64,000 nucleotides of DNA from Sphaerodactylus townsendi (taxonomy: Eukaryota): contig NC_059428.1 in the NCBI RefSeq assembly GCF_021028975.2, forward strand, positions 147,498,001-147,562,000. Direction: 5' to 3'. The translations under genes and the position numbers were made by a program. This document shows positions 4,091 to 57,599 of the stretch, piece by piece (the stretch's first letter is position 1; each line of letters starts with the position of its first letter). The notes under the pieces are model-generated. The model had not been told where the DNA came from, did not search any database, and saw nothing but the letters and a program-made list of their open reading frames with translations.

Positions 4091-4377
4091 ACCATCATGC
4101 CGCAAGCTACATGGGCATGGAAAGGTTTGAACCCTCTTCTCCACAATACAGGGATGTCAGGAGCTCCAGGCCACAGCTGGAGGTTGGCGACTCTGTCATC
4201 CAGCTCCATCCCACATCGACTCGCCAGTTGACTTTTCATGGCACAACTTTCTACTTGCTGTCCTTGATTTGACAGTGGCTGGCCTCAAATGTGGACGGTC
4301 CGGATGCTCTTGGAAGATTGTAGCGCACGTATCCCACACGTATCCGAATTCTCTCTCGTTCATGAAGCTTTGCACCC

Positions 4378-6400
4378 TGACCTAGATGGTCCAGCCTACC
4401 CCACTCTCATCTGAAGTGAAGAAGGATCAGCACTGGTCAGGACTTGAATAGGAGACTGCCAAAGAAGTCCAGGGGTCACGACGCAGAGGAAGCAAGAACA
4501 AACCGTCTCTTGCCCTGGCAACCTTGCAGGGCTGCCATAAGTCAGCTCACAGAACTTCAAGTCTGCCACTTGAGATTAAAAATTATTCCTGTTCAGATGC
4601 TAGGTTGAGTTTTATGCAAAGGTTGAACAGCAACAGATTATTCCTAGGGAAAAAAGGCTCGTGCAGCAAAATGTAGGACTTATATATTTTATTGAAACTC
4701 AAGTTTCACAAAAGTACTGCGATTTTGTGAATTCCAGTCACAGGAAAAACATGATATTGCAGATGAATTTATTACACAGTATATTATGAAAAGAGCGTGT
4801 GTGTTTGAAATATGTACAATTTTTACTGAACACAGAAACTGAATAAATCTGCTCTGAAGCTTATTGTGCCTTTGAGGCGGCAATGAAAATCTAGCAGTGT
4901 CTTAAACCACAGACACATGCAACCATGATTGCTTGTCCAAAAACATTAAAACCAGGTTTCCCTGCTTGGGGAAGGAGACAGCTATTTTACTTGGCTGCAT
5001 GGGTTACAGACTGAACATAACTTACGAACATCATCAACAAAATCAATAGAAACCCATGAAAATCACCTAGTAAAATTCTGTAGAGATCTTTCCTGTATAG
5101 GAAAACAAACCTAGCTCTACTTGGAAAAAAAAATCTTTAAACCACAGTGAAAAAAAACTCTTAACTTGCAGAGATCACTGTTTAAGAACTTAAAAGATGT
5201 CAAGCTCTTAAAATCCATCTACGTTTCCCCCTACTGTTTTAAATTTTAACACAAATATTGCTGGGAGAAAAGTCCCTAGCAAAAAAAAAAAGTGATGGGC
5301 AAACTATGATGCAATTATTAAGCAAAGAACATGGGACGAAAAAGGTTTTCTCGGGTTTTGAAGGACACTCTCCCCCGCCCCGCTCCACCAAATGCACAAG
5401 ACTTCTTTCCAGACACACCAAACCTTTCTCTTACATTTGAAGCAAGCCATCTTTTGATACGATGATGGCCTTTAGATGAGGGGGAAATGGCACCGTTGGC
5501 AAGTTATCAATGCCTTCCACAAAAGTCCAGGGGTTTGCAGATTCCCTTCAAATGCAAAATTTAAGTTTGCCTTTTCAGAACAAGGCCTGCTTATCTAGAG
5601 AAACAGCCCAATGAATTGGCGCAAACGCCCCCAAACTAAAAACAGCTTCTTTTATTTTAGCACCATTGTAGGAAACTGACTGCCATGAACAAAACATTGC
5701 CCTAAATTATATTAACCCATCCCTAGACAAACCTACAGGTTATATAACACTGAAAGATTATGATCACACTCCAATGCAGGCAAATATCATCTACCCATCT
5801 GAAAACAAAGCACTTCTGACCTGTGAAGAAAAGGTGCCAAGATGTGTTAAGGCCCCATCACCACCAAAAAGAAAGGGCTCTGCAGGGTAGTGGAAATTCA
5901 CTTTTCCTAGCTTTGCAGAACTAGTCAGACAAACATGGTCCAAGAAGCAATCATCTTTTCTGGCCCATTACAGGCGTTCCTGAATTACTGGAAGCCAACC
6001 CGGAGAGCGTTCAGGGGGCCACACTTATAGTAGTAAGTTGCAGCCCTCCATGGATACTCAAGACTCCTGTTCTTTCCTGCCAGTCCTTGGAGCTAAAGCA
6101 ATAGTGTTCTGACGGGGAAGGCCATAGCAAGAAATTTCCCCAAGCACCACCAAGAAATCCTGGGCTAGTTTCAAGACTCAGAGGATGACAAAGTCAGACT
6201 GCGAACGGTGGACATGAGGTGAGACTTGTACGTCTTGCTGAGGCCCGTCATCCAGAACTTCAGGAGTTTCACATTGTCCTCCTCGGTGGCGCCCCAAATG
6301 CTCAGCAGCTTCTGGGTATCCTCCTTGGGCCGGCTGTCTACTCTGGAGAATTTGAAGAGAACCTTCCCTTTACCATTTAATGCAGTTTAAAAAGAAGCAG
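4378..6400 (-). repeat. Segmental duplicate of the FLCN 3' flank, 3' UTR and last exon (source ~10912-13370)
   Basis: Colinear direct homology, roughly 80% by eye in the UTR part, e.g. 6121-6164 vs 13097-13140. Confidence 0.92.
6165..6372 (-). pseudogene. FLCN: Pseudo-exon copy of the FLCN terminal coding exon
   Basis: 208 nt, 14 mismatches vs 13141-13348; translates [66 protein letters not shown]; acceptor AG>GG; CGA>TGA two codons before the normal stop. Confidence 0.9.
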
Positions 6401-6522: not shown

Positions 6523-6809
6523 TTATTTTTTCAACTGCCTTTTCCTCTCGGGCTCACATTTGTTCTCTTTTCGTACCTCTTTGGAGAAGAAGTTGTAATT
6601 GGCTGGATCATAGTCTTCCCAAAGCTTTTCAAATTCCGCTTGATAACATTTCACCCACTCGGCGTCTTCGACTATCAAAACGTTCTCCCTGTTCTGCTGG
6701 ATGGCTTGCGAAGTCCAATTGAGGGATCCTGTGAGCAGCCACCTCTTGTCTATGATGGCAAATTTATGGTGCATGTAGCCGCTTTCCTGATCATGACGTA
6801 CCGGAATCC
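6523..6809 (-). CDS. PLD6: PLD6 (MitoPLD/Zucchini) coding exon 2
   Basis: [33 protein letters not shown] contains the HKD motif; AG acceptor at 6810-6811; TAA at 6523-6525. Confidence 0.95.
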
Positions 6810-8672: not shown

Positions 8673-9676
8673 TATAAGCATCTTTTATACGTGCTTCCAT
8701 ATTTTTTACCAGCAAATTCTTTTAAGGATATATATTTCAAATGTACCTCGCTTTAAAAAAATCTTATCTACTTGATGACTAACGTGGGTGTTTTGTTAAA
8801 AGGATTATTTTTTAAAAGATAGACTAGGTCCAGGTTTGAAGGAACCTCTGGATACAAGCCAAAAAATTGCATGTGTCCAATGGAATCGCATGTGCCCAAG
8901 GAATTGCATGTGTCCAGTAGGATAAGAGCTGGCATGGCCCAGCTCTAGTGGATAGAGTAGGGGTGGCCAACCTATGGTATTCCAGATGTTCATGGACTAC
9001 AATTCCCATCAGCCATGCTGGCAGTTGATGGGAATTGTAGTCCATGAACATATGGAGCACCATAGGTTGGCCATCCCTAGGCGAGAGTGTTGGACTGGAA
9101 CCCTGGTAGACCTGACTTCAAATCCCCCCTTCTATCATGGCATCTGAAGGCTCGTTACAAACTCTTAGTCTGGCCTAACCTTACAGGTTGTTGTTATAGG
9201 GGCAACGAGCAAGGGACCAATGATGTTCTAAGCCACTTTTGAGTCCCGGCTGGGGAAACAAGTGGGATTTCAACCAATAAGCGCAAATGAATATGTAGAT
9301 GAGGAGAGGAGTGGGTGGTTTGAGACGGATGAATGGGAGGGGGCAGGGGTTAAAAGAAGGCGGCTTGGGGGGCATTATCCTTATTCATAGGTGTCAAACT
9401 CGCAGCCCTCCAGATGTTATGGACTACAGTTCCCATCATCCCCTGCCAGCATCATGCTGGCCATGCTGGCGGGGCTGATGGGATTTGTAGTCCATGAACA
9501 TCTGGAGAGCCGCAGGTTGCAGACCCCAGAAATATACCAATAAAAATATTTTTTAAAGGTGCAAGGGTCTTTGTTCTTTTAGCATCTGGAGGGGCCGCGT
9601 GTCTGACACCTGCGGATGAGAGAGAGATCCTTCCCAGTCCGGCCATCCCGCCACGTGGAGGGTCTCGCCCCAGTAC

Positions 9677-10082
9677 CGGCCAGGCGGAGGGCGCCGATCT
9701 GGGAGCCCCGGAGGGCCATGTAGTCGGCGTCGGTGATCACCCGGATGCGGACGCCTCGGTGGTGGAGGAGCAGGAGGACGCGGCGGAGCTGGTGGCTGGA
9801 GAAGGCGAAGAGGCAGAGGTCGAGCGAACGGCGGGCGCTGAGCAGGCGGGCCACCAGGCGGCCGAGCGAGGTCCGGTCGTCGTGGGGCAGCGAGCACAAG
9901 CACGGGGCCCCGCCCTCGGCGGCCGCTATCTGCCCCTCGACGCACGACAGGCGCGACGGGAAGAACAGCGCCTCCCGCAGCCGCCGCGCCTCCCGCCGCC
10001 TCAGCAGCCACTCGACCAGCAGCTCGCAGCCGACGGCCGCCGCCACCGACGCCAGGCCCCACCACAGCCCACGTGGCGCCAT
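9677..10082 (-). CDS. PLD6: PLD6 coding exon 1
   Basis: [22 protein letters not shown] (membrane anchor), REALFFPS..C..CxCxLPH (CCCH zinc motif), [23 protein letters not shown]; GT donor at 9675-9676; 406+287=693 nt. Confidence 0.93.
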
Positions 10083-10115
10083 CGCTCCCGCCGCCGCCGC
10101 CCCTCCGGCTGCCCC

Positions 10116-10521
10116 TGCGCATGCGCCGCGCTCAACCGCCGCCAACGGGTTCTCCCGCGCTTCCCCCCCTCGCCTCCTTATTGGTGGGGATGGCAGAGGG
10201 CCTAAGGACTCCGCCTCAACACCTTCCCGCTGCGCATGCGCCTCGCTCAACTGCTGTCAACGGATCCGCCCCCCCCCTCCTTATTGGTGAGGATGGCAGA
10301 GCGCCTCTCCTTAAGGACGCCGCCTCAACACCTCCCGGCTGCGCATGCGCCTCTCCCAACCGCCGTCAACGGATTCTCCCGCGTTCCCCCGCCCCTTCCT
10401 TATTGGTGGGGATGGCAGAGCGCCTAACACCTCCCCGCTGCGCACGCGCCGCATTCAACCGCCGCCAACGGGTTCTCCCGCGCTTTCCTCCCCCTCGCCT
10501 CCTCGTTGGTGGGGATGGCAG
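10116..10521 (-). promoter_or_regulatory. PLD6 promoter: four tandem ~100-115 bp units with NRF1, MYB and CCAAT motifs
   Basis: TGCGCATGCGC at 10116, 10231, 10340 (TGCGCACGCGC at 10439), each followed by CAACYG..CAACGG, then ATTGG in units 1-3 (GTTGG in unit 4). Confidence 0.75.
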
Positions 10522-13140
10522 GATCAACTCTGGTTAGGACTGGAATAGGAGACTGCCAAGGAAGTACAGGGGTCACTATGCAGAGGAAGTAAGAACAAAG
10601 CTCCTATGTGGCCAACCTATGGCACTCCTATGTGGCCATCCTGGCAGGGGTTGATGGGAATTGTAGTCCATGGACATTTGGAACGCCATAGGTTGGCCAC
10701 CCCCGTAGGCTAATCTCTCTTGCCCTGACAACCTTGCAGGGCCGCCATAAGTCAGCCGACAGCACTCAAAGTCTGCCACTTGTGATGAAAAAGCTACATT
10801 CCTGTTAACAGGTGCTGGGTTGGTTATATGCAAAGGTTGAACAGCAGCAGATCGTTCCCAGGAAGAAAGACTCGTTCAGTGAAATGTAGGACTTTTGGAT
10901 TTTATTTAAACTGACCTAGATGGACCCAGGCTAGCGAAATCTCATCTGATCTCAGAAGGCAAGAAGGATCAGCCCCGGGTTAGGACTTGGATGGGAAACC
11001 ACCAAGGAAGTCCAGGGTCGCTATGCAGAGGAAGCAATAAGAAATCTCCTGAAAACTTTAGTGGGCTGCCATAAATCAGCTGCAACCTGACAGCACTTGA
11101 AGTCTGCCACTTGGAATACCTGCCAGGTTGGTTTTTGCTAAGTTTGAACTGCAATAGATATTCCCAGGAAGAAAGACTTGTGAAGTGAAATGGACAACTT
11201 TTATATTTTAGTTAAATTTACAATTTCACAGAAGTACTGCAATGAAAGATGCAGGAAAAAATGTGACCTTAGAGATGAATTTATTAACTCAGTGTATATT
11301 ATGAAAAAAGTAGTAGAACATGAAGAGTTTTGGATTTATATCCTGTTTTTCTCTCCTGTCAGGAGACTCAAGATGGCTTACAAAATCCTTTCCCTTCCTC
11401 TCCCCACAACAGACACCTTGTGAGGCAGGTGGGGCTGAGAGAGAGAGAACCATGACTGGCCCAAGGTCATCCAGTAGGCTTCACGTGCAGGAACAGGGAA
11501 AACAAATCTGGTTTGTGTGGAGGAGCGGGGAATCAACCCTGGTTCTCTAGATTACAGTCCACTGCTCTTAACCACTACACCACACTGGCTCACTAGAGTA
11601 TGTGTGTTTGAAAAAATTTATAATTTTTATTGTTGTCACCCCCTTCCCACCAAAAAGCTGCTCTGAAGCTTATTGTGGATTTGAGGCAGCATTGAGAATT
11701 CAGTGGTTTCTTAAACTACATGCACATATGAACCAGATGTGCCTGGCCAAAAATATGAAAACCAGGTTTTTCCTGCTTGGGGGAAAAAACAGCTATTTTA
11801 TTTGGTTCATGGGCTACAGACTGAACATAGCTTTTAAATTAAAACGGCAAAATTATCAACAAAAATCAGTATAAATATCTGAAAATTATAGCCACATTTT
11901 GCAAGACAACAAGCCTAGTTTTACTTAGAAAAAATATTTAAGCCACTCTGTGATAAAAAAAAAATTGTTATCAACTTACAAAGAAGTTAGATATGTGCAG
12001 TGTTTAAAATCTATCTTTGTTTTTCCTTTTCATTTTAAATTTCAACATAAATATTGATGGGGGAGAAGTCCCTAGCAAAGGACTTGTTGGATAAACTACA
12101 AACCACTGTGCAAATATTAATTTTTTAAAAAAACAACCCCAAAACATGAGAAAAAGGTTCTTTCTCCCGTTACAAGGGATGCTCTCCGCTCACCAAACGC
12201 ACAGGACTTTTTCACAAACATTTCTCTTATATGTGGAGCAAGCCACCTTCTGATCAGACCATGGCCTTTACACAAATACCAAACATGATGCAGTATACTC
12301 TTACTGCGACTTTTTCTTCCAATTGAAACTGAAAAAAGAGATCTTCTCCAAACAGTGTTTATTTTCTCCACAGTGCCAAGAATCATCAGCACATTGGTGG
12401 GAGGGGGAATAAGACAGTTTGCAAGTTTTCACTGCCTTCTACGAGAATGGAAAGTCCAGGGTCTTGCAGGCAGATTCCTTTCAAATACAAAATTTAAGTT
12501 TCCCTTTTCAAGGCAAAGCCTGCTTATCTACCGGGTTATAAAGAAACAGCCCAATCACAGTTCCAATCAGTTGGCTCAAGCACCCTCCCACCGATCTAAA
12601 AAAAACAAGACTCTTTTCTTTTGGCTGCATTGTGGGAAGTCAACTGGCAGAATCAACACAGTCTGAACCCATCCCAAGAAAAATCCGCTACGATCATACT
12701 CCAGTGCAGGCAAAGGAGACCATCTACTCATCTGAAAACAGACGAAGCACTTTTGACTTGCGGAGGATAGCATCAGGGACGGTTAAAAACACAACATGTT
12801 TTAAGTTTCCAACTCCCCAATAAAAAGTTCTGCCAGGGTGGGAGAAATTCATCATTCCCAGCTTTGCGAAACTGGTTAGAAAAACATGATCCAAGACACA
12901 ATAATCTTTTCTAGCCCATAGACATGGGAGAACATCCCCACCGCAGGCACTTCTGAATTACTGGAAAACAGCCCGGAAAGCATTCAGGTGTCCATGCATA
13001 CAGTAGTAAGTTGGAGCTCTCCATGGATACAGACGAATCCTATTCTTCCTTGCCTCAGTCCTTGGAGCTGAGGCAACGGGGTTCCGATGGGGAAGGCCAC
13101 AGCAAGAAATTTTCCCCAAGCACCACCAAAAAATCCTGGG

Positions 13141-13380
<240 letters not shown>

Positions 13381-19999: not shown

Positions 20000-20248
20000 C
20001 TCGCACATTTCCGACTTCTTCGGTCCCGGGCTGCTGGAGTCCACGCTGGCGCCCTCCACCGGACTGTGCGGCCGGATCCGGCTGCTCATTTGAATGCCCC
20101 CTTCCTCCTCTTCCGGCTGCTCGCTGTGTCCTGGGCTGTCCCCATTTCCTGCACCATGCGGAAGAGGGGCGTGCAGGACTTCCGTACAGAAGAGGGTGCG
20201 TGGGCCATGCAATTCACAGAAGTGGCAAAGGACCACAATGGCGTTCAT
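20000..20248 (-). CDS. FLCN: Folliculin first coding exon (human exon 4)
   Basis: [26 protein letters not shown]...PKKSEMCE; 249 nt; the 11 exons total 1749 nt (582 aa). Confidence 0.96.
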
Positions 20249-20779: not shown

Positions 20780-21600
20780 GTGCCATCAAGCCGCAGCTGA
20801 GTTATGGGGACCCTGTGGGGTTGTCAAGGCAAGAGATAAACAGAAGTGGCCTCTGCACAGGAAACTTGGACTTCCTTGGTGTCTCACATCCAAATACTAA
20901 CCTGTGCCGTCCTAGCTTAGTTCCAAGATCTGACAAGATCAAGCTAGCCTGAGCCACCAGATCACAGCAAATGATGGACAGAGGTGGTTTGTTGCTTTCT
21001 GCCTCTGCATAACAACCTTGGACTTCCTTGGTGGTCTTCCATCCAAGGACTAAACCAGGGCCGACCCTGCTTAGCTTCTGAGATCTGACAAGATCGGACT
21101 AGCTTAGACTATACAGTTCAAGGCAAGAGACATACAGAGGTGGTTTGCCACTGCCTGCCTCTGCGTAGCAACCCTGGACTTCCTTGGTGGCCTCCCATCC
21201 AAGTACTAAACCAGGGCCAACCCTGCTTAGCTTCTGAATTCTGACAAGGTCGGACTAGCTTAGACTGTACAGTTCAAGGCAAGAGACATACAGAGGTGGT
21301 TTGCCACTGCCTGCCTCTGCGTAGCAACCCTGGACTTCCTTGGTGGCCTCCCATCCAAGTACTAAACCAGGGCCGATCCTGCTTAACTTCTGAGATCTGA
21401 TGAGATCAACCTAGCCTAGGCCTTCTAGGTCACGGCAAGAGATTGACAGAGGTGGTTTGCCATTGCCTGCCACTGCATAGTAGCCCTTGGACATCCTTGG
21501 TGGTCTTCCATCCAAATACTAAACCGAGGCCAACCCTGCTTAGCTTCTGATTGCAAGCTAGCCTAGGCTATCTAGGTCAGGGAAAGAGGTGGTTTGCATG
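20780..21600 (-). repeat. Tandem array (~5 units, ~156-bp period) of 5S rRNA-derived SINE heads
   Basis: GGAC(T/A)TCCTTGGTG recurs at ~20869, 21020, 21176, 21332, 21489; minus strand reads CAGAAGCTAAGCAGGGTCGGCCCTGGTTTAGTACTTGGATGGGAG, matching the 5S internal control region. Confidence 0.85.
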
Positions 21601-21721: not shown

Positions 21722-21960
21722 CTCTGCCTCTGTTGCGTTGCTTATCCAAGGCGCTAGTCCGGGCTGAGGTCACCCCCCAAAGCGAAGGGCTTCCCTCGGG
21801 CTCCCTCGCCTTCTCCTCTGCGCATGCGCGCCGGTCCACGGCGAGGTTCCAACCCCAAGCGCCTGACACTGACTGGGCGGGCGGTACCACCCCGCGCCCG
21901 TCCGAGGGGGGAGATAAAACCCCCTCGCGGCTTTTAAAGGGCCAAGTCGAGCCCAGCAGG
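21722..21960 (-). promoter_or_regulatory. FLCN CpG-rich promoter and probable non-coding exon 1
   Basis: CpG-rich; NRF1 TGCGCATGCGC at 21819-21829; GC box; donor GAG|gtaagg at 21722/21721. Confidence 0.6.
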
Positions 21961-32427: not shown

Positions 32428-33425
32428 ACTCAACTGGCAGCAGCCCACCAAAGCCCACAGCACCTACCACCTGGTTCTTTTAACCAGAGATGCCGGACAT
32501 TTAAACCTGGGACATTGTAAATGCTACACAGAAGGTCTGACACTGAGAACATAGATAGCTCCAGCTGCCTTCTAAAGACCAGCCTCCTCAACTGGCAGCA
32601 GCAAGCAAGAGTCTCAGGTCTGATGCCTTCCATGAGAGATGCCAGGGAATGAATCGGGGGCTTTTTGCATGTCATGCAGAGGTTCTGGCACTAAAAATAT
32701 GGATAGGACAAGCAGCCTTCTAAAAAGTCGCTGTACTCAACTGGCAGCAGCAAGCCAGGGTCTCAAGCTAAGGCTTTCCCATTTCTTCCATGCCAGGGAC
32801 TGAACCCAAGATGTTCTGCATGCCACACAGAGGTTCTCACACTAAAAATACACATAGGTCCAGCAGCCTCCTAAAGAATCGCTTACTCAACTGGAAGAAG
32901 CAAGCCAGTCTCAGATCCAATTCCTTTCATAAAAGATGCCAGGGATTGAATCGGGGGCCTTCTGCATCCGAAGCAGAGGTTCAGCCACTGAGACCATGGA
33001 CAGCTCCAACAGCCTTCTAGAGAATCGCCTACTCAACTGGCAGCAGCAAGCCAGAGTCTCAGATCTGACTCCTTCCATGAGAGATGCCAGGGATTGAACC
33101 TGGTACCTTCTGCATGCTAAGCACAAGCTCTGCCACTGAGACCACAGACAGCTCCGACATCCTCCTAAAGAATCGCCTACTCAACTGGAAGCCACAAGCC
33201 AGAGTCTCGGGTCTGATTCCAGGGATTGAACCCGGGACCTTCTGCATGCTCAGCACAAGCTCTGACACTGAAACCACAGACAGCTCCACCAGCATCCTAC
33301 AGAATCGCCTGCTCAACTGGAAGCCACAAGCCAGAGGGTCAGGTCCAATCCCCCCCTTGAGAGGCGTCAGGGATTGAACCCGGGGCCTGCTGCATCCCAA
33401 GCAGAGGTTTCGCCACTAAGCCACG
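32428..33425 (-). repeat. Tandem array (~7 units, ~150-bp period) of tRNA(Ala-like)-derived SINE heads
   Basis: CTCAACTGG at ~32429, 32587, 32736, 32886, 33032, 33180, 33312; minus strand TGGTCTCAGTGGCAGAGC...GCATGCAGAAGG..CCAGGTTCAATCCCTGGCATCTC carries A and B boxes. Confidence 0.85.
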
Positions 33426-33577: not shown

Positions 33578-33632
33578 CTTGGGCCGAGAGCTGCCGGACG
33601 CTGTTGACGAACTGCTCCAGGGCGGACGCCAT
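33578..33632 (-). CDS. COPS3: COPS3 exon 1
   Basis: MASALEQFVNSVRQLSAQG; 55 nt; the 12 exons total 1272 nt (423 aa). Confidence 0.96.
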
Positions 33633-52977: not shown

Positions 52978-53278
52978 TTGAGCTTTGTTCATTTCACATA
53001 GTACTTGCAATCCTAACGTTCAGGCAGAGATACACAGAAGCAGGGTCAACTGGATCAGCTTTGTCAATTTCACACAGAACTTGCAGTATTAAGGTTCAGG
53101 CAGAGATACAAGGAAACAGGGTCAACTGGATGAGCTTTGTCAATTGCACATAGAACTTGTGATGCTAACATTCAGGCAAAGATATAAAGAAGAAAAGTCA
53201 CCTGGATCAGCTTTGTCAATTTCACATAGAACATGCAGTGTTAACATTCAGACAGATAAGAGAACAGGGTCAACTGCA
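52978..53278. repeat. Minisatellite, 76-bp unit, ~4 copies
   Basis: AGCTTTGT at 52981, 53057, 53133, 53209. Confidence 0.85.
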
Positions 53279-54558
53279 TTCTCTACTCCTTGAATATGCA
53301 ATGCTTCAAAGATTGCCCCCCTCCCAAATAAAAGAACAGGCAGAGAAATGCTGCAAATAAACAGGTGATGGGAAACTAAGCGAGCTCAGAAAATGGCGCC
53401 GATGAGGAATTTCAGGGAAGCAGAGAAACTAAGAAACGTAGTCAATAGATCACACAAGCAACTACAGATGTTTTCAAAACATTCCAGCCAGATAATAGTT
53501 TTTAAAAGGGAGTGATTTCAAAGGTTTTTGAGGTTAAAAGTAAAACATTTGGGGGTGAAAACAATGCAGAACTCTGAGGAGGAAACGTTTTATTGCCTGT
53601 CTCAAAACGTTTCAAATGAATTGCGCAGAAGGGCCAACAATGCTAGGGAACAAGGCAGCTGGATAAGAGTGAGGTACATTGACTCTCTAAAGAAAGTCAG
53701 CGCCTCAGTCTGCAACACCTGAGCAAAGCTATTTAGGATGGGGCATTTTGGACAGGTGCCATTTTGGAGGGACACCGTCAGTCAGAAGTTACTTGATGGC
53801 ATTTAACACACAGCATGCATAACACCATAGAGTTCACCCTTCAAAGTAGCCATTTTCTCCAGGGAAACTGAGCCTAGCACTGGTAACCCTCGTTGTATTA
53901 TACAGCACAAAATGGCTTCCCCACCCCCACCCCTTGAGCCACTGGGGAGGAGATGAGTTGGGATTAAAAACACACACAAACACACACCTCTCAGCTCTCT
54001 TTCCCAAGCCGTGCTCCAGATTTCTTGACTATATAACCACAAAATTGTTTTATTTATCAAGCGGCTCCTCCTCCCCCCCTGCTGATTCAGTCTATTGATG
54101 TGCGTAGTACAATGAAACCGTATCAAAATTTGGACCAAAGCAGAATATTTGGGGGGGGGAGGGAAGGGGAAAAAGAGGACACGGGAGAAACAGCGGCCGC
54201 CTCCTTCAAAAACATTTTCAGAATAAAAAGAGCTTTTGATTGCTTTCGAGAGGTGGGGAGGGCCAAACAAATAGAGAGAGCAAAAGTCAACCCTCGGCTG
54301 GCATATGTTTCTCTGGCTCCAGCAGGTTACGGGTCTGGCAGGGAAACCGTTGCAGAAACCTCAGTTGGCCACTTGGAGGAAATCGACCCTGTGAAACACT
54401 CAGGGCCAACCACAGCAAAGAAGGGCCTTGCCTGATTGTCTTGCTTCAGATTAGGGTTGGAAAATTTGCATGTTGTATACATCAAAATCATAGTGCATTG
54501 GTATGAATTGTGTTGGGTTGTCTGCGACTGCAGGGCGGTCATGTTGATGGTTCTAAAC

Positions 54559-54744
54559 CAGCGGTTCTCAACCTGGGGGTCGCGACCCCTTTGGGGGCCG
54601 AACGGCCCTTTCTCAGGGGTCGCCTAAGACTCTCTGCATCAGTGTTCTCCAGCTGTAAAATGGATAAATGTTAGGGTTGGGGGTCACCACAACATGAGGA
54701 ACTGTATTAAAGGGTCGTGGCTTTAGGAAGGTTGAGAACCACTG
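54559..54744 (+). mobile_element. SPIN/URR1-like hAT MITE, copy 1
   Basis: CAGCGGTTCTCAACCT..GGGTCGCGACCCCTTTGGGG...GGGGTCACCACAACATGAGGAACTGTATTAAAGGGTCG...AGGTTGAGAACCACTG. Confidence 0.8.
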
Positions 54745-54772
54745 ACCTAGATAAATCCAGGAGCCACAAAAC

Positions 54773-54958
54773 CAGTGGTTCTCAACCTATGGGTCGTGAC
54801 CCCTTTGGGGGTCGAACGACCCTTTCACAGGGGTCACCTAAAACTCTCTGCATCAGTGTTCTCCATCTTTAAAATAGATCAATGTTAGGGTTGGGGGTCA
54901 CCACAACATGAGGAGCTGTATGAAAGGGTTGCGGCATTAGGAAGGTTGAGAATCACTG
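54773..54958 (+). mobile_element. SPIN/URR1-like hAT MITE, copy 2
   Basis: Same 186-bp element, 28 bp downstream of copy 1. Confidence 0.8.
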
Positions 54959-57599
54959 ATCTAAACAAATAAGTCAACTGTGACTAGCTGGCAAAACAGG
55001 GGTTGACCATTCCAGATGTGCAGCTGGACCGGGGGGGGGGGAGTGGAGTTTCAGGAGGGGAAGGAACCCAATGTAGATTTAGTGATATAGAGTTCCCCCT
55101 AGGTTGCTGCCATTTCTCCAGGCAAAATTTCCCCGTATCCCGAAATTTCTCTGAAGCCTGGATTTTATCTGCAGCCCGAATATGTCTCCATAGCCCGTAG
55201 AGCAGTTGCGATTCCCACCTGGCAGCTGGCAGCCCGAAACTCTGAGAATCAATTCTATTTCCCAAAAACACAATCCTGGATTAAAACAAAGCACGTCCCA
55301 CCGGCTCCTTAACCCCCACCTGCTACCTTTTCCCCGAAAAAAACGCAAGAACCTATTCTGGTTCGACTCCACGGCGCCAGTCCAGACGAGAGCTGTCCAG
55401 TTTGCTTGTTGATGTTCCTTGCAAACTGGTTCAGCCTCGGTCCTTCCTTTACTCTCAAGATAATTAAAAGCACCCTTGGATAAACAAAACAAGAGAGAAA
55501 AAGATCCCCTCAGGGCAAAGCTGTCTTGCTAATTAAAGAGGGACCAGTTTGTAGCAATCACCCTAATAAAAAAAGGACCAGGCCGAAGCTGGCTAGCTCT
55601 AACAGGCTTGCCAATTAACCTAGATTTACATGCCTTTCCCTTCTCGAAGCGAGCGTCTGCCAGTTATGCAATCACTCCCAACTATTGGCCAATAGGTTGG
55701 ATGAAGGAAAACATCAGATTAGATGTGATTTCAAACGTCTCGTTCCTGTTATTTCAGCCCAGAAATACTTGTTTGGGATGGAACGCCTCCCCTTGCGCAA
55801 TTCAAGGCCAGGAATCATTATTTCAGCCGTGTGTTTCTTCCTCCTGTTTAATTCTTTTCCTCTATAAAAGTGGACCCATCTATTTTTTAAAATGTCACTT
55901 GTGAGTCAGAAAATCAACATGATACACATATTGAAGGAGAACTGTTGTACCGGGTTGGAGAGACGGTGTGCAAATTGCGTATCAACCCACACATTGGGTC
56001 TATGAAACACTCAAAACTGTACAAGGCCAANNNNNNNNNNNNNNNNNNNNNNNNNNNNNNNNNNNNNNNNNNNNNNNNNNNNNNNNNNNNNNNNNNNNNN
56101 NNNNNNNNNNNNNNNNNNNNNNNNNNNNNNNNNNNNNNNNNNNNNNNNNNNNNNNNNNNNNNNNNNNNNNNNNNNNNNNNNNNNNNNNNNNNNNNNNNNN
56201 TAGTCCCAGTTCTTCGGAGCTCTCTCAGCCCCACCTACCTCACAGGGTGTTTGTTGTGAGGGGGGAAGGGAAAGGAGTTTGTAAGCCCCTTTGAGTTTCC
56301 TACAGGAGAGAAAGGGGGGGATATAAATATAACTCTTCTTCTTCTTCTCCTCCTCCTCCTCCTCCTTCATCATCATAACCTATCTATGATAGATAAGGAG
56401 AGCCAGAGGGGTGTAACTGGTTAAGCAGTCGAATTAGGATCTGGGAAATTCAGGTTTGAATCCCGACTGTTGCCGTGGAAGCCTGCTGAGGAACATTGGG
56501 CCAGTCACGCGCTCTCAGCCCCGATCCTGGCTAGTATTTGGATGGGAGGCCTCCCAGGAACACCAAGGGAAAAACAAGGAGGCAGGCAATGGCGAAACCC
56601 CTCTAAAACCAATCCATCTTTATTATGGTCCTAGACCAGCACAGACCAGCATAACGTGTTTTAAAATTGTAAACTTATATCTAAAAGAATCTACTGACCA
56701 TAAGAAATTGGAAACATTAGAAGACGGAGACAAAAACAATGGGATGCAAGCATATGTATGAAAAGGGGACGTCGGCTTGCAAAAAACCCCAAACTAGGGC
56801 TCTTTCCGCACATGCAGAATAATGCACTTTCAAACTGCTTTCAGTGCTCTTTGAAGCTGTGCGGAATAGCAAAATCCACTTGCAAACAGTTGTGAAAGTG
56901 GTTTGAAAACCCATTATTTTGCATGTGCGGAAGGGGCCTATAAAAGGGGGAAATAGCCCTGCTGTACTGGGTGGCTGTAAATCAGCTGTGATTCTGCTTT
57001 AACTATCTTTTCCTCTCTTTTTTTTTGCTTCAAATGACAGCTGATTTATGACCACCCAGTACAGCAGGGCTATTTCCCCCTTTTATAGTTTTGGTTTCTT
57101 GAAAGCCATCGTTTTCGTACCTATGCTTGTATCCTATTGTTTCGGTCTCCATCTTTTCAGGTTTCCCATTACTTAAGCTTTGCAACAATATTGTTGTTTC
57201 CGGAGAAGTGCGCTTATCTCTCCAATCTGATTCCTGGCAGGTATGGTGACCTAAGGCCATTTCCCCTTTTTAGAGTTGTCGAGAACATAGCGATATAAAT
57301 TAGCCAGGCATGCAAAGGAACCGGCCCGGCACAAATTCTCGGAACTGGATTTGCTGACCTTTGCCCCCCTTCTGAACTTGCTCTGCCGAACAGCATTGGC
57401 GCAAAATGCTAATTAGACCCACTGACTATTTGCCGTGTGGTTCTCGGACTCTGTCAGGTCAAGAAAGCCGGCCAGATGTTTACCACACGAGTTTCTAGGG
57501 ACGGGATAGAGAGTGGAGAAGGGAGAAAGGCAGAGCTTCAGACTTTGGGGATCTCCATTGTTGGAGCCCCTGGGTGCCATGGTGTCCGATGGGAAGTGT

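Follow-up and report, generated by a model that had tools for sequence, protein, structure and literature searches.

Why does the piRNA-processing gene PLD6 (Zucchini) of the gecko Sphaerodactylus townsendi start next to four copies of a promoter-like module, and do the extra copies contribute to its expression? In the window analyzed here, i.e., a stretch of 64,000 nt of contig NC_059428.1, four head-to-tail units of 99 to 118 nt each (10098 to 10521) are located immediately upstream of an intact PLD6 gene. Their pairwise identity of 78 to 86% corresponds to a divergence of 14 to 22%. The initial annotation had described four tandem units with an NRF1 site and a MYB pair, ATTGG in three of them, and GTTGG in the fourth, all of which is confirmed by the motif positions, and a tandemly amplified promoter-like module at PLD6 is supported by the sequence. 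The array would represent a lineage-specific promoter built of repeats, resembling other promoters of this kind.

PLD6 and its genomic neighborhood

The gene name proposed previously proved to be correct. PLD6 is encoded on the minus strand, and its spliced product of 230 amino acids (aa) contains the intact HKD motif HHKFAIID. The coding exons and the closest exon of the upstream neighbor are as follows:

9677 to 10082, minus strand: PLD6 coding exon 1, whose start codon has a strong context (G at -3 and at +4) and is in register with other gecko PLD6 starts
6523 to 6809, minus strand: PLD6 coding exon 2 with the intact HKD motif, AATAAA at about 6506
13144 to 13350, minus strand: last coding exon of FLCN, the upstream neighbor with the same orientation, at a distance of 2.6 kb from the array

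Exon 1 matches two protein chains named "mitochondrial cardiolipin hydrolase" with E values of 1e-32 and 5e-31, which we take to be the PLD6-type proteins of mouse and human, and exon 2 carries the single HKD motif in a PLD-like domain with a PLDc_2 match above the cutoff. The best matches are PLD6 orthologs with the N terminus in register, headed by those of Euleptes and Heteronotia, and the identity to Euleptes PLD6 is 72% over 216 columns. In a protein tree calculated without a control gene, the terminal PLD6 branch has a length of 0.29, compared with 0.074 for Euleptes and 0.15 for Heteronotia. The grouping of the window with fish rows in this tree is likely due to long-branch attraction and was not used for placement. 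FLCN exons at 20248 to 13144 document the synteny of PLD6 and FLCN, and COPS3-like and NT5M-like first exons lie near 33620 and 35330, in what we take to be the human gene order.

Architecture of the repeat units

10098 to 10198, minus strand: unit 1, gene proximal; NRF1 site 10116 to 10126, MYB pair 10133 to 10148, CCAAT box 10180 to 10184, conserved block 10185 to 10196
10199 to 10304, minus strand: unit 2; NRF1 site 10231 to 10241, MYB pair 10248 to 10263, CCAAT box 10283 to 10287, 14-nt deletion between MYB and CCAAT
10305 to 10422, minus strand: unit 3, nearest to unit 2 (86%); NRF1 site 10340 to 10350, MYB pair 10357 to 10372, CCAAT box 10402 to 10406
10423 to 10521, minus strand: unit 4, gene distal; NRF1 site 10439 to 10449, MYB pair 10456 to 10471, GTTGG at 10505, conserved block 10510 to 10521
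10185 to 10196, 10288 to 10299, 10407 to 10418, and 10510 to 10521: the copies of the conserved 12-nt block

In each unit, TGCGCAYGCGC is followed 6 nt later by two CAACNG hexamers at a 10-nt spacing and then by a pyrimidine tract of variable length, ATTGG or GTTGG, and the 12-nt block TGGGGATGGCAG. Read on the minus strand, as PLD6 is transcribed, the block comes first, followed by CCAAT, the two MYB sites, and NRF1. The factor names are assigned from consensus patterns, and all sites are predictions. As would be expected of a germline promoter driven by A-MYB and NRF1, predicted MYB and NRF1 consensus sites lie near the PLD6 start. The edge of unit 1 is 16 nt ahead of the start codon at 10082, the center of its NRF1 site is 39 nt and its CCAAT box 100 nt away from this codon.

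The putative NRF1 sites start at 10116, 10231, 10340, and 10439, the one of unit 4 being nonpalindromic, yet within the consensus; the sole other occurrence of TGCGCAYGCGC in the window is found at 21819, upstream of FLCN. Pairs of the pattern YAACNG-N4-YAACNG start at 10133, 10248, 10357, and 10456, and these are the only four in 64 kb. The expectation for the window is 0.33, and none of 100 shuffles reached four, a result that demonstrates the repeat and not four chance events, since the copies are not independent. Regarding the MYB sites, which had been assigned to the YAACKG type, the YAACNG pairs are present as claimed, but the first site reads CAACCG in three of the four units and falls outside YAACKG. 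CCAAT (ATTGG) is found at 10180, 10283, and 10402, and GTTGG at 10505 represents its loss in unit 4. The distance from NRF1 to MYB is 17 nt in all four units, and that from MYB to CCAAT is 47, 35, 45, and 49 nt, respectively. The 12-nt block adjoins CCAAT in every unit and is conserved like the named motifs, with only one variable column out of 12, and it matches none of the motif patterns compared with it. SP, E2F6-type, CREB, ETS, YY1, TATA, and CHR patterns are absent or not retained across the units.

The E2F6-type sequence TCCCGC occurs once per unit at differing positions, and an E-box (CACGTG) is located at 10070 to 10075, just within the PLD6 coding start. E-box and E2F6-type sites are a possible handle for the somatic repression of germline genes.

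Presence and copy number of the array in related samples

Contigs of four of the eight listed sequencing runs were compared with the window, i.e., X3 (organism A, sample S2), X4 (organism B), X5, and X6 (organism D). A stretch without contig coverage was taken as absent only where a contig joins across it, as described below for X4; exon 1 (X3 and X4) and 10343 to about 10385 (X6) were treated as mere gaps. In X3, one contig of 293 nt covers units 2 and 3 and the greater part of unit 4, further contigs lie on unit 1 and the far flank, and seven differences from the window are listed within the array. The listed array pieces of X5 show no differing letter, and this run may share the source of the window. 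Unit 1 and exon 1 are joined within single contigs of X5 and X6. The array is present in a second sample and hence is no assembly error: one 31-mer is common to units 1 and 4, but the units are 14 to 22% apart, the 293-nt contig of S2 spans two of them and the better part of a third, X5 agrees, and X6 contains units 1, 2, and 4, which leaves an artifact with practically no probability.

The copy number likely varies among relatives. Organisms B and D are about 2% and 3% diverged from the window, respectively, as estimated from word share. One contig of X4 passes from the spacer before unit 2 directly into unit 3 (10227 to 10338), with the joint at the NRF1 site and a left side of the unit-1/2 spacer type. 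Its depth of 17.9 resembles those of unit 4 and the flank (18.7 and 18.9), and no contig lies on unit 2; the shorter side of the joint measures 37 nt, and records may have been filtered. Organism B likely has a three-unit array from which unit 2 was lost by unequal exchange at the NRF1 site. Copy number across species, to which the initial annotation had drawn attention, would accordingly differ in organism B, while one other organism A sample has four units as well. X6 lacks a contig on the body of unit 3 and has an extra contig of 74 nt of the unit-1/4 type, which starts exactly in register with the point where the unit-4 spacer contig ends. These contig ends suggest a fourth unit of another (unit-1/4) type in organism D.

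Six of the seven columns that split the units two against two unite units 2 and 3, which are therefore regarded as the youngest pair. Since the units are diverged by 14 to 22%, the array is much older than the species splits compared here.

Conservation of motifs and spacers

Motifs had also been said to be kept better than spacers, and this holds between the units: 3 of 28 motif columns are variable, vs 29 of 57 others (P = 0.0002; P = 0.002 with random placement of the blocks). Two of the three motif changes affect degenerate positions, and the third one abolishes CCAAT in unit 4. Inside the 33-nt core from NRF1 to MYB, 2 of 23 motif columns vs 6 of 10 interleaved columns vary (P = 0.004), and because the interleaved bases vary and the motif bases rarely do, this contrast counts against a simple conversion of the whole core. 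The overall contrast was retained when unit 1 (3/28 vs 21/57; P = 0.009) or the pyrimidine tract (P = 0.0007) was omitted, and it reached P = 0.068 when the gene-side spacer was dropped along with the tract. With a wider motif list that includes SP, E2F6-type, and CREB half sites, the contrast was gone (15/47 vs 17/38; P = 0.16), owing to the SP and E2F6-type sites, which are not retained. In neutral simulations on a star tree, which ignore conversion and shared history, at least 11 of the 12 upstream motifs were retained with probabilities of 7.5e-5, 0.002, and 0.026 at pair identities of 72, 80, and 86%, respectively. The P values of the comparisons between units are optimistic, since the motifs were named after their conservation had been noticed. 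Clustered conservation alone is also a property of three of four slices of the window's other tandem arrays (P = 0.003 to 0.04).

A motif test that had been fixed beforehand was not significant among X3, X4, and X6: 4 of 22 listed substitutions are located in motifs, vs 5.8 expected (P = 0.27). The underlying list comprises 22 substitutions and six indels, with seven table rows missing and about 8 to 10 counted differences unplaced. When indels are counted as well, 2 of 28 events in these runs fall on fixed motif positions, vs 6.6 expected (P = 0.024). All four motif substitutions are located in the first MYB site, and two of them break the site of unit 2 in organism D, where it is destroyed in both contigs. 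No listed change in the three runs affects an NRF1 site, a second MYB site, or a CCAAT box (chance of 0.0015 for a comparison chosen post hoc), and 2 of the 22 substitutions hit the 12-nt block.

CpG island and local duplications

9601 to 10500: CpG island, covers exon 1 and the four units; GC content of 63 to 80%, CpG observed/expected (o/e) ratio of 0.78 to 1.26 per 100 nt
10520 to 10912, plus strand: far flank, where the array meets a SINE-like piece cut at its 5' end at a short AG overlap

The CpG island ends abruptly with unit 4: at its far edge, the o/e ratio drops from 1.12 to 0.18, and it amounts to 0.14 to 0.18 beyond. Within the array the ratio is 0.96, vs 0.08 to 0.27 in four slices of three equally diverged tandem arrays of the window. 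Methylation of the upstream units, which had been named as an observation that would speak against their function, is not indicated by the sequence; all four units are likely unmethylated in the germline, because CpG is retained in each of them.

The flank piece resembles a SINE. The far flank (10520 to 10912) duplicates 10966 to 11215 (79% identity) and 4423 to 4699 (86%), and the locus is prone to duplication: the FLCN 3' end recurs nearby as a 2-kb copy, and 400 nt of flank are duplicated. The FLCN copy (4377 to 6399) comprises the last coding exon and its 3' flank, begins about 125 nt past the PLD6 stop codon, and is 93% (exon) and 74% (flank) identical to 10911 to 13377. A nested position of PLD6 in the last FLCN intron was considered and rejected, since the true last exon is the one at 13350 to 13144 and the sequence at 6374 to 6171 is the copy. 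In this copy the original splice acceptor is altered and one Leu is replaced by Trp; it is likely a decaying piece and possibly now belongs to the PLD6 3' untranslated region. The public automated S. townsendi gene model P0116 joins PLD6 exon 2 (6774 to 6559) to the FLCN exon copy (6374 to 6174) without PLD6 exon 1, a fusion that is likely a misannotation.

Other tandem arrays of the window, with mostly SINE-like units of 76 to 297 nt, are located at 20849 to 21550, 32521 to 33417, 52981 to 53276, and 54555 to 54970. The first one lies just within the FLCN 5' region and the second one just within the COPS3-like 5' end, both near CpG-rich starts.

Proposed mechanism and alternative explanations

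The explanation that we favor with moderate confidence is that an ancestral proximal promoter module was multiplied and that the extra copies likely bind factors, thereby adding partly redundant activation. It builds on the observed repeat, its motifs, their conservation between units, the retention of CpG, and the presence in a second sample; the steps beyond these observations are conjectural. The units would be tandem copies of the likely ancestral PLD6 proximal promoter, which, in the direction of transcription, comprised CCAAT, two MYB-type sites, and NRF1, and the ancestral state would have been a single unit. Breaks in the germline and unequal exchange at the NRF1 site likely multiplied the module. 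NRF1-bound sites of the germline have been described as particularly prone to breakpoints and to insertions that duplicate the motif (Kaiser et al. 2021, PMC8559717), which would provide an origin that requires no selection. As in the NRF1 clusters of that study, the motif is multiplied, and the likely unit loss of organism B maps at NRF1; the human events reported there are singletons of 5 to 20 nt, whereas the gecko units are about 110 nt long, contain three motif types, and are fixed and old. Units 2 and 3 would have arisen last, and units would later have been lost or exchanged between species.

The island would lack methylation in the germline and probably carry it in the soma, like that of cattle PLD6, a sperm-specific unmethylated island of the kind that is reported to be rich in NRF1, E2F1, and E2F6 sites (PMC5928411). 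NRF1 and NF-Y would open the island, and A-MYB or another MYB would raise its activity in spermatocytes. According to work on human cells, the start is dictated by the activator nearest to the 3' side, starts are scarce between two sites, a downstream NRF1 or NFY blocks upstream starts, and an upstream NRF1 or NFY adds strength (PMC11269187). Transcription would start mostly between the NRF1 site of unit 1 and the start codon, as starts in the upstream units would be blocked by factors that sit further downstream, and units 2 to 4 would add activation. Since the unit-1 NRF1 site is so close to the start codon (39 nt) and many activators prefer a distance of about -50, the main start may instead be set by unit 2. 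Moderate purifying selection would keep most sites, and the loss of one unit or one site would be tolerated. An origin by mutational bias combined with purifying retention fits all results.

A neutral by-product, in which only unit 1 works, the units arose from mutational bias, and the extra motifs are preserved by few CpG losses and by exchange with unit 1, is rather unlikely in our estimation. It would be in line with the duplication-prone locus (the FLCN 3'-end copy, the flank duplicate, and the other arrays with units of 76 to 297 nt), the likely three units of organism B, the broken first MYB site in unit 2 of organism D, the missing CCAAT of unit 4, and the nonsignificant test between species (P = 0.27), and the contig ends of X6 suggest a third unit of the unit-1/4 type and with it exchange between units. 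However, the interleaved bases of the core vary in 6 of 10 columns, compared with 2 of 23 for the motif bases, the spacing of NRF1 and MYB is fixed in all four units, and the changes listed for the three runs spare NRF1, the second MYB site, and CCAAT.

That the number of units was selected as a dosage device, boosting PLD6 against transposons and tracking their load, appears improbable. The conserved motifs of the upstream units and the likely copy number difference among close relatives would fit such a device, as would the long PLD6 branch (0.29 vs 0.074 in Euleptes), but a missing unit and missing single sites are tolerated in relatives, and the branch may reflect the rate of the lineage. 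NRF1 is reported to activate unmethylated retrotransposons in the mouse (PMC12420836), which would couple an NRF1-driven defense gene to the threat. The broader idea of the promoter as a dial, with whole modules gained and lost at the NRF1 site and a piRNA-processing capacity that steps between species with transposon pressure, is a long shot.

Even less credence is given to a boundary role, in which the main task of the upstream units would be to protect the start against SINE-side methylation and FLCN read-through, with little contribution to activation. In its favor, the drop of the CpG ratio coincides with the junction between unit 4 and the cut SINE-like piece, and FLCN, which has the same orientation, terminates 2.6 kb upstream; on the other hand, the MYB pairs, which a pure barrier would not need, are also kept, and several AATAAA-type signals of FLCN precede the array.

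Upstream ATGs and the overlapping open reading frame

The NRF1 palindromes bring along start codons upstream of PLD6. As annotated initially, the ATG at 10122 is located 40 nt upstream of the PLD6 start and out of frame:

9553 to 10122, minus strand: out-of-frame open reading frame (ORF) from the ATG in the unit-1 NRF1 palindrome, 189 aa unspliced and 154 aa spliced

Further ATGs at 10237, 10346, and 10454 open ORFs of 11, 11, and 47 aa, which end before the gene. A functional role of the overlapping ORF is not borne out by its features. The three ATGs within NRF1 palindromes have a C at -3 and +4, a weak context, vs G at both positions of the PLD6 start. All five changes listed for organism D alter residues of the overlapping ORF, vs four of five that are silent in PLD6 exon 1, where they indicate coding constraint in a small sample, and the overlapping frame stays open in 76 to 81% of codon shuffles. 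Neither the good start context nor the coding constraint of a functional overlapping upstream ORF was found; an inhibitory role would need neither. The ORF is likely incidental, a by-product of the NRF1 palindrome. If starts are set by unit 1, the upstream ATGs would for that reason mostly be outside the mRNA or scanned past.

Comparison with known systems

TCFL5 reportedly binds mouse Pld6, the level of which drops twofold or more in Tcfl5 mutants (PMC9808571; bioRxiv 10.1101/2021.04.04.438419), and OVOL2 binds near this gene at CCGTTA (PMC11789646). The TCFL5 consensus WANSWCGW and the OVO consensus CNGTTA have no match in 10041 to 10560, and all eight MYB-type sites read CNGTTG, one letter from the OVO consensus. 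Binding of A-MYB at Pld6 itself is said to have been observed by Li et al. in 2013. A-MYB drives the mRNAs of piRNA biogenesis, and its role at pachytene piRNA loci is described as conserved in amniotes (PMC9114089). The gecko locus shares with the germline CpG-island promoters of mammalian piRNA-pathway genes the gene, the CpG island, and the NRF1 and MYB-type sites, and it differs in that the module is present fourfold.

Other promoters built of repeats are those of the mouse L1 monomers, human PDYN, TYMS, and MAOA, and Aspergillus cyp51A (TR34/TR46). Like the gecko array, they consist of tandem units with factor sites, the number of which can alter the output; their units are mostly near-identical and vary within species, whereas those of the gecko are 14 to 22% diverged and, with 78 to 86% identity, differ from the near-identical units of a classical promoter VNTR. 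NRF1 has also been reported to act on TERRA promoters built of 29-bp repeats (PMC6600276). Judged from literature listings outside subscription papers, no report of a repeated PLD6 promoter or of gecko PLD6 regulation was found.

The array provides a footprint of itself: four copies that have diverged by about a fifth would mark the bases that matter in a reptile piRNA-gene promoter, i.e., NRF1, the MYB pair with its 10-nt spacing, CCAAT, and the 12-nt block. By sequence alone, the mammalian germline grammar would extend to a squamate. Relatives that likely differ in unit number offer a natural test of whether selection keeps motif clusters arising from mutational bias, and of whether the PLD6 level limits the piRNA output, with a copy number that is testable against expression.

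A metagenome scan yielded 20 pattern matches that came down to one locus (L001, 440 to 1270), a teleost pld6 with another exon layout and without an upstream NRF1 site or MYB pair, which is uninformative with respect to the array. This teleost gene has an extra intron inside the portion that equals gecko exon 1. In X5, a second PLD6-like contig (record 19, at 9675 to 9865) with about 86% identity was found beside the contig identical to the window, and it would come from a paralog or from another species present in the run.
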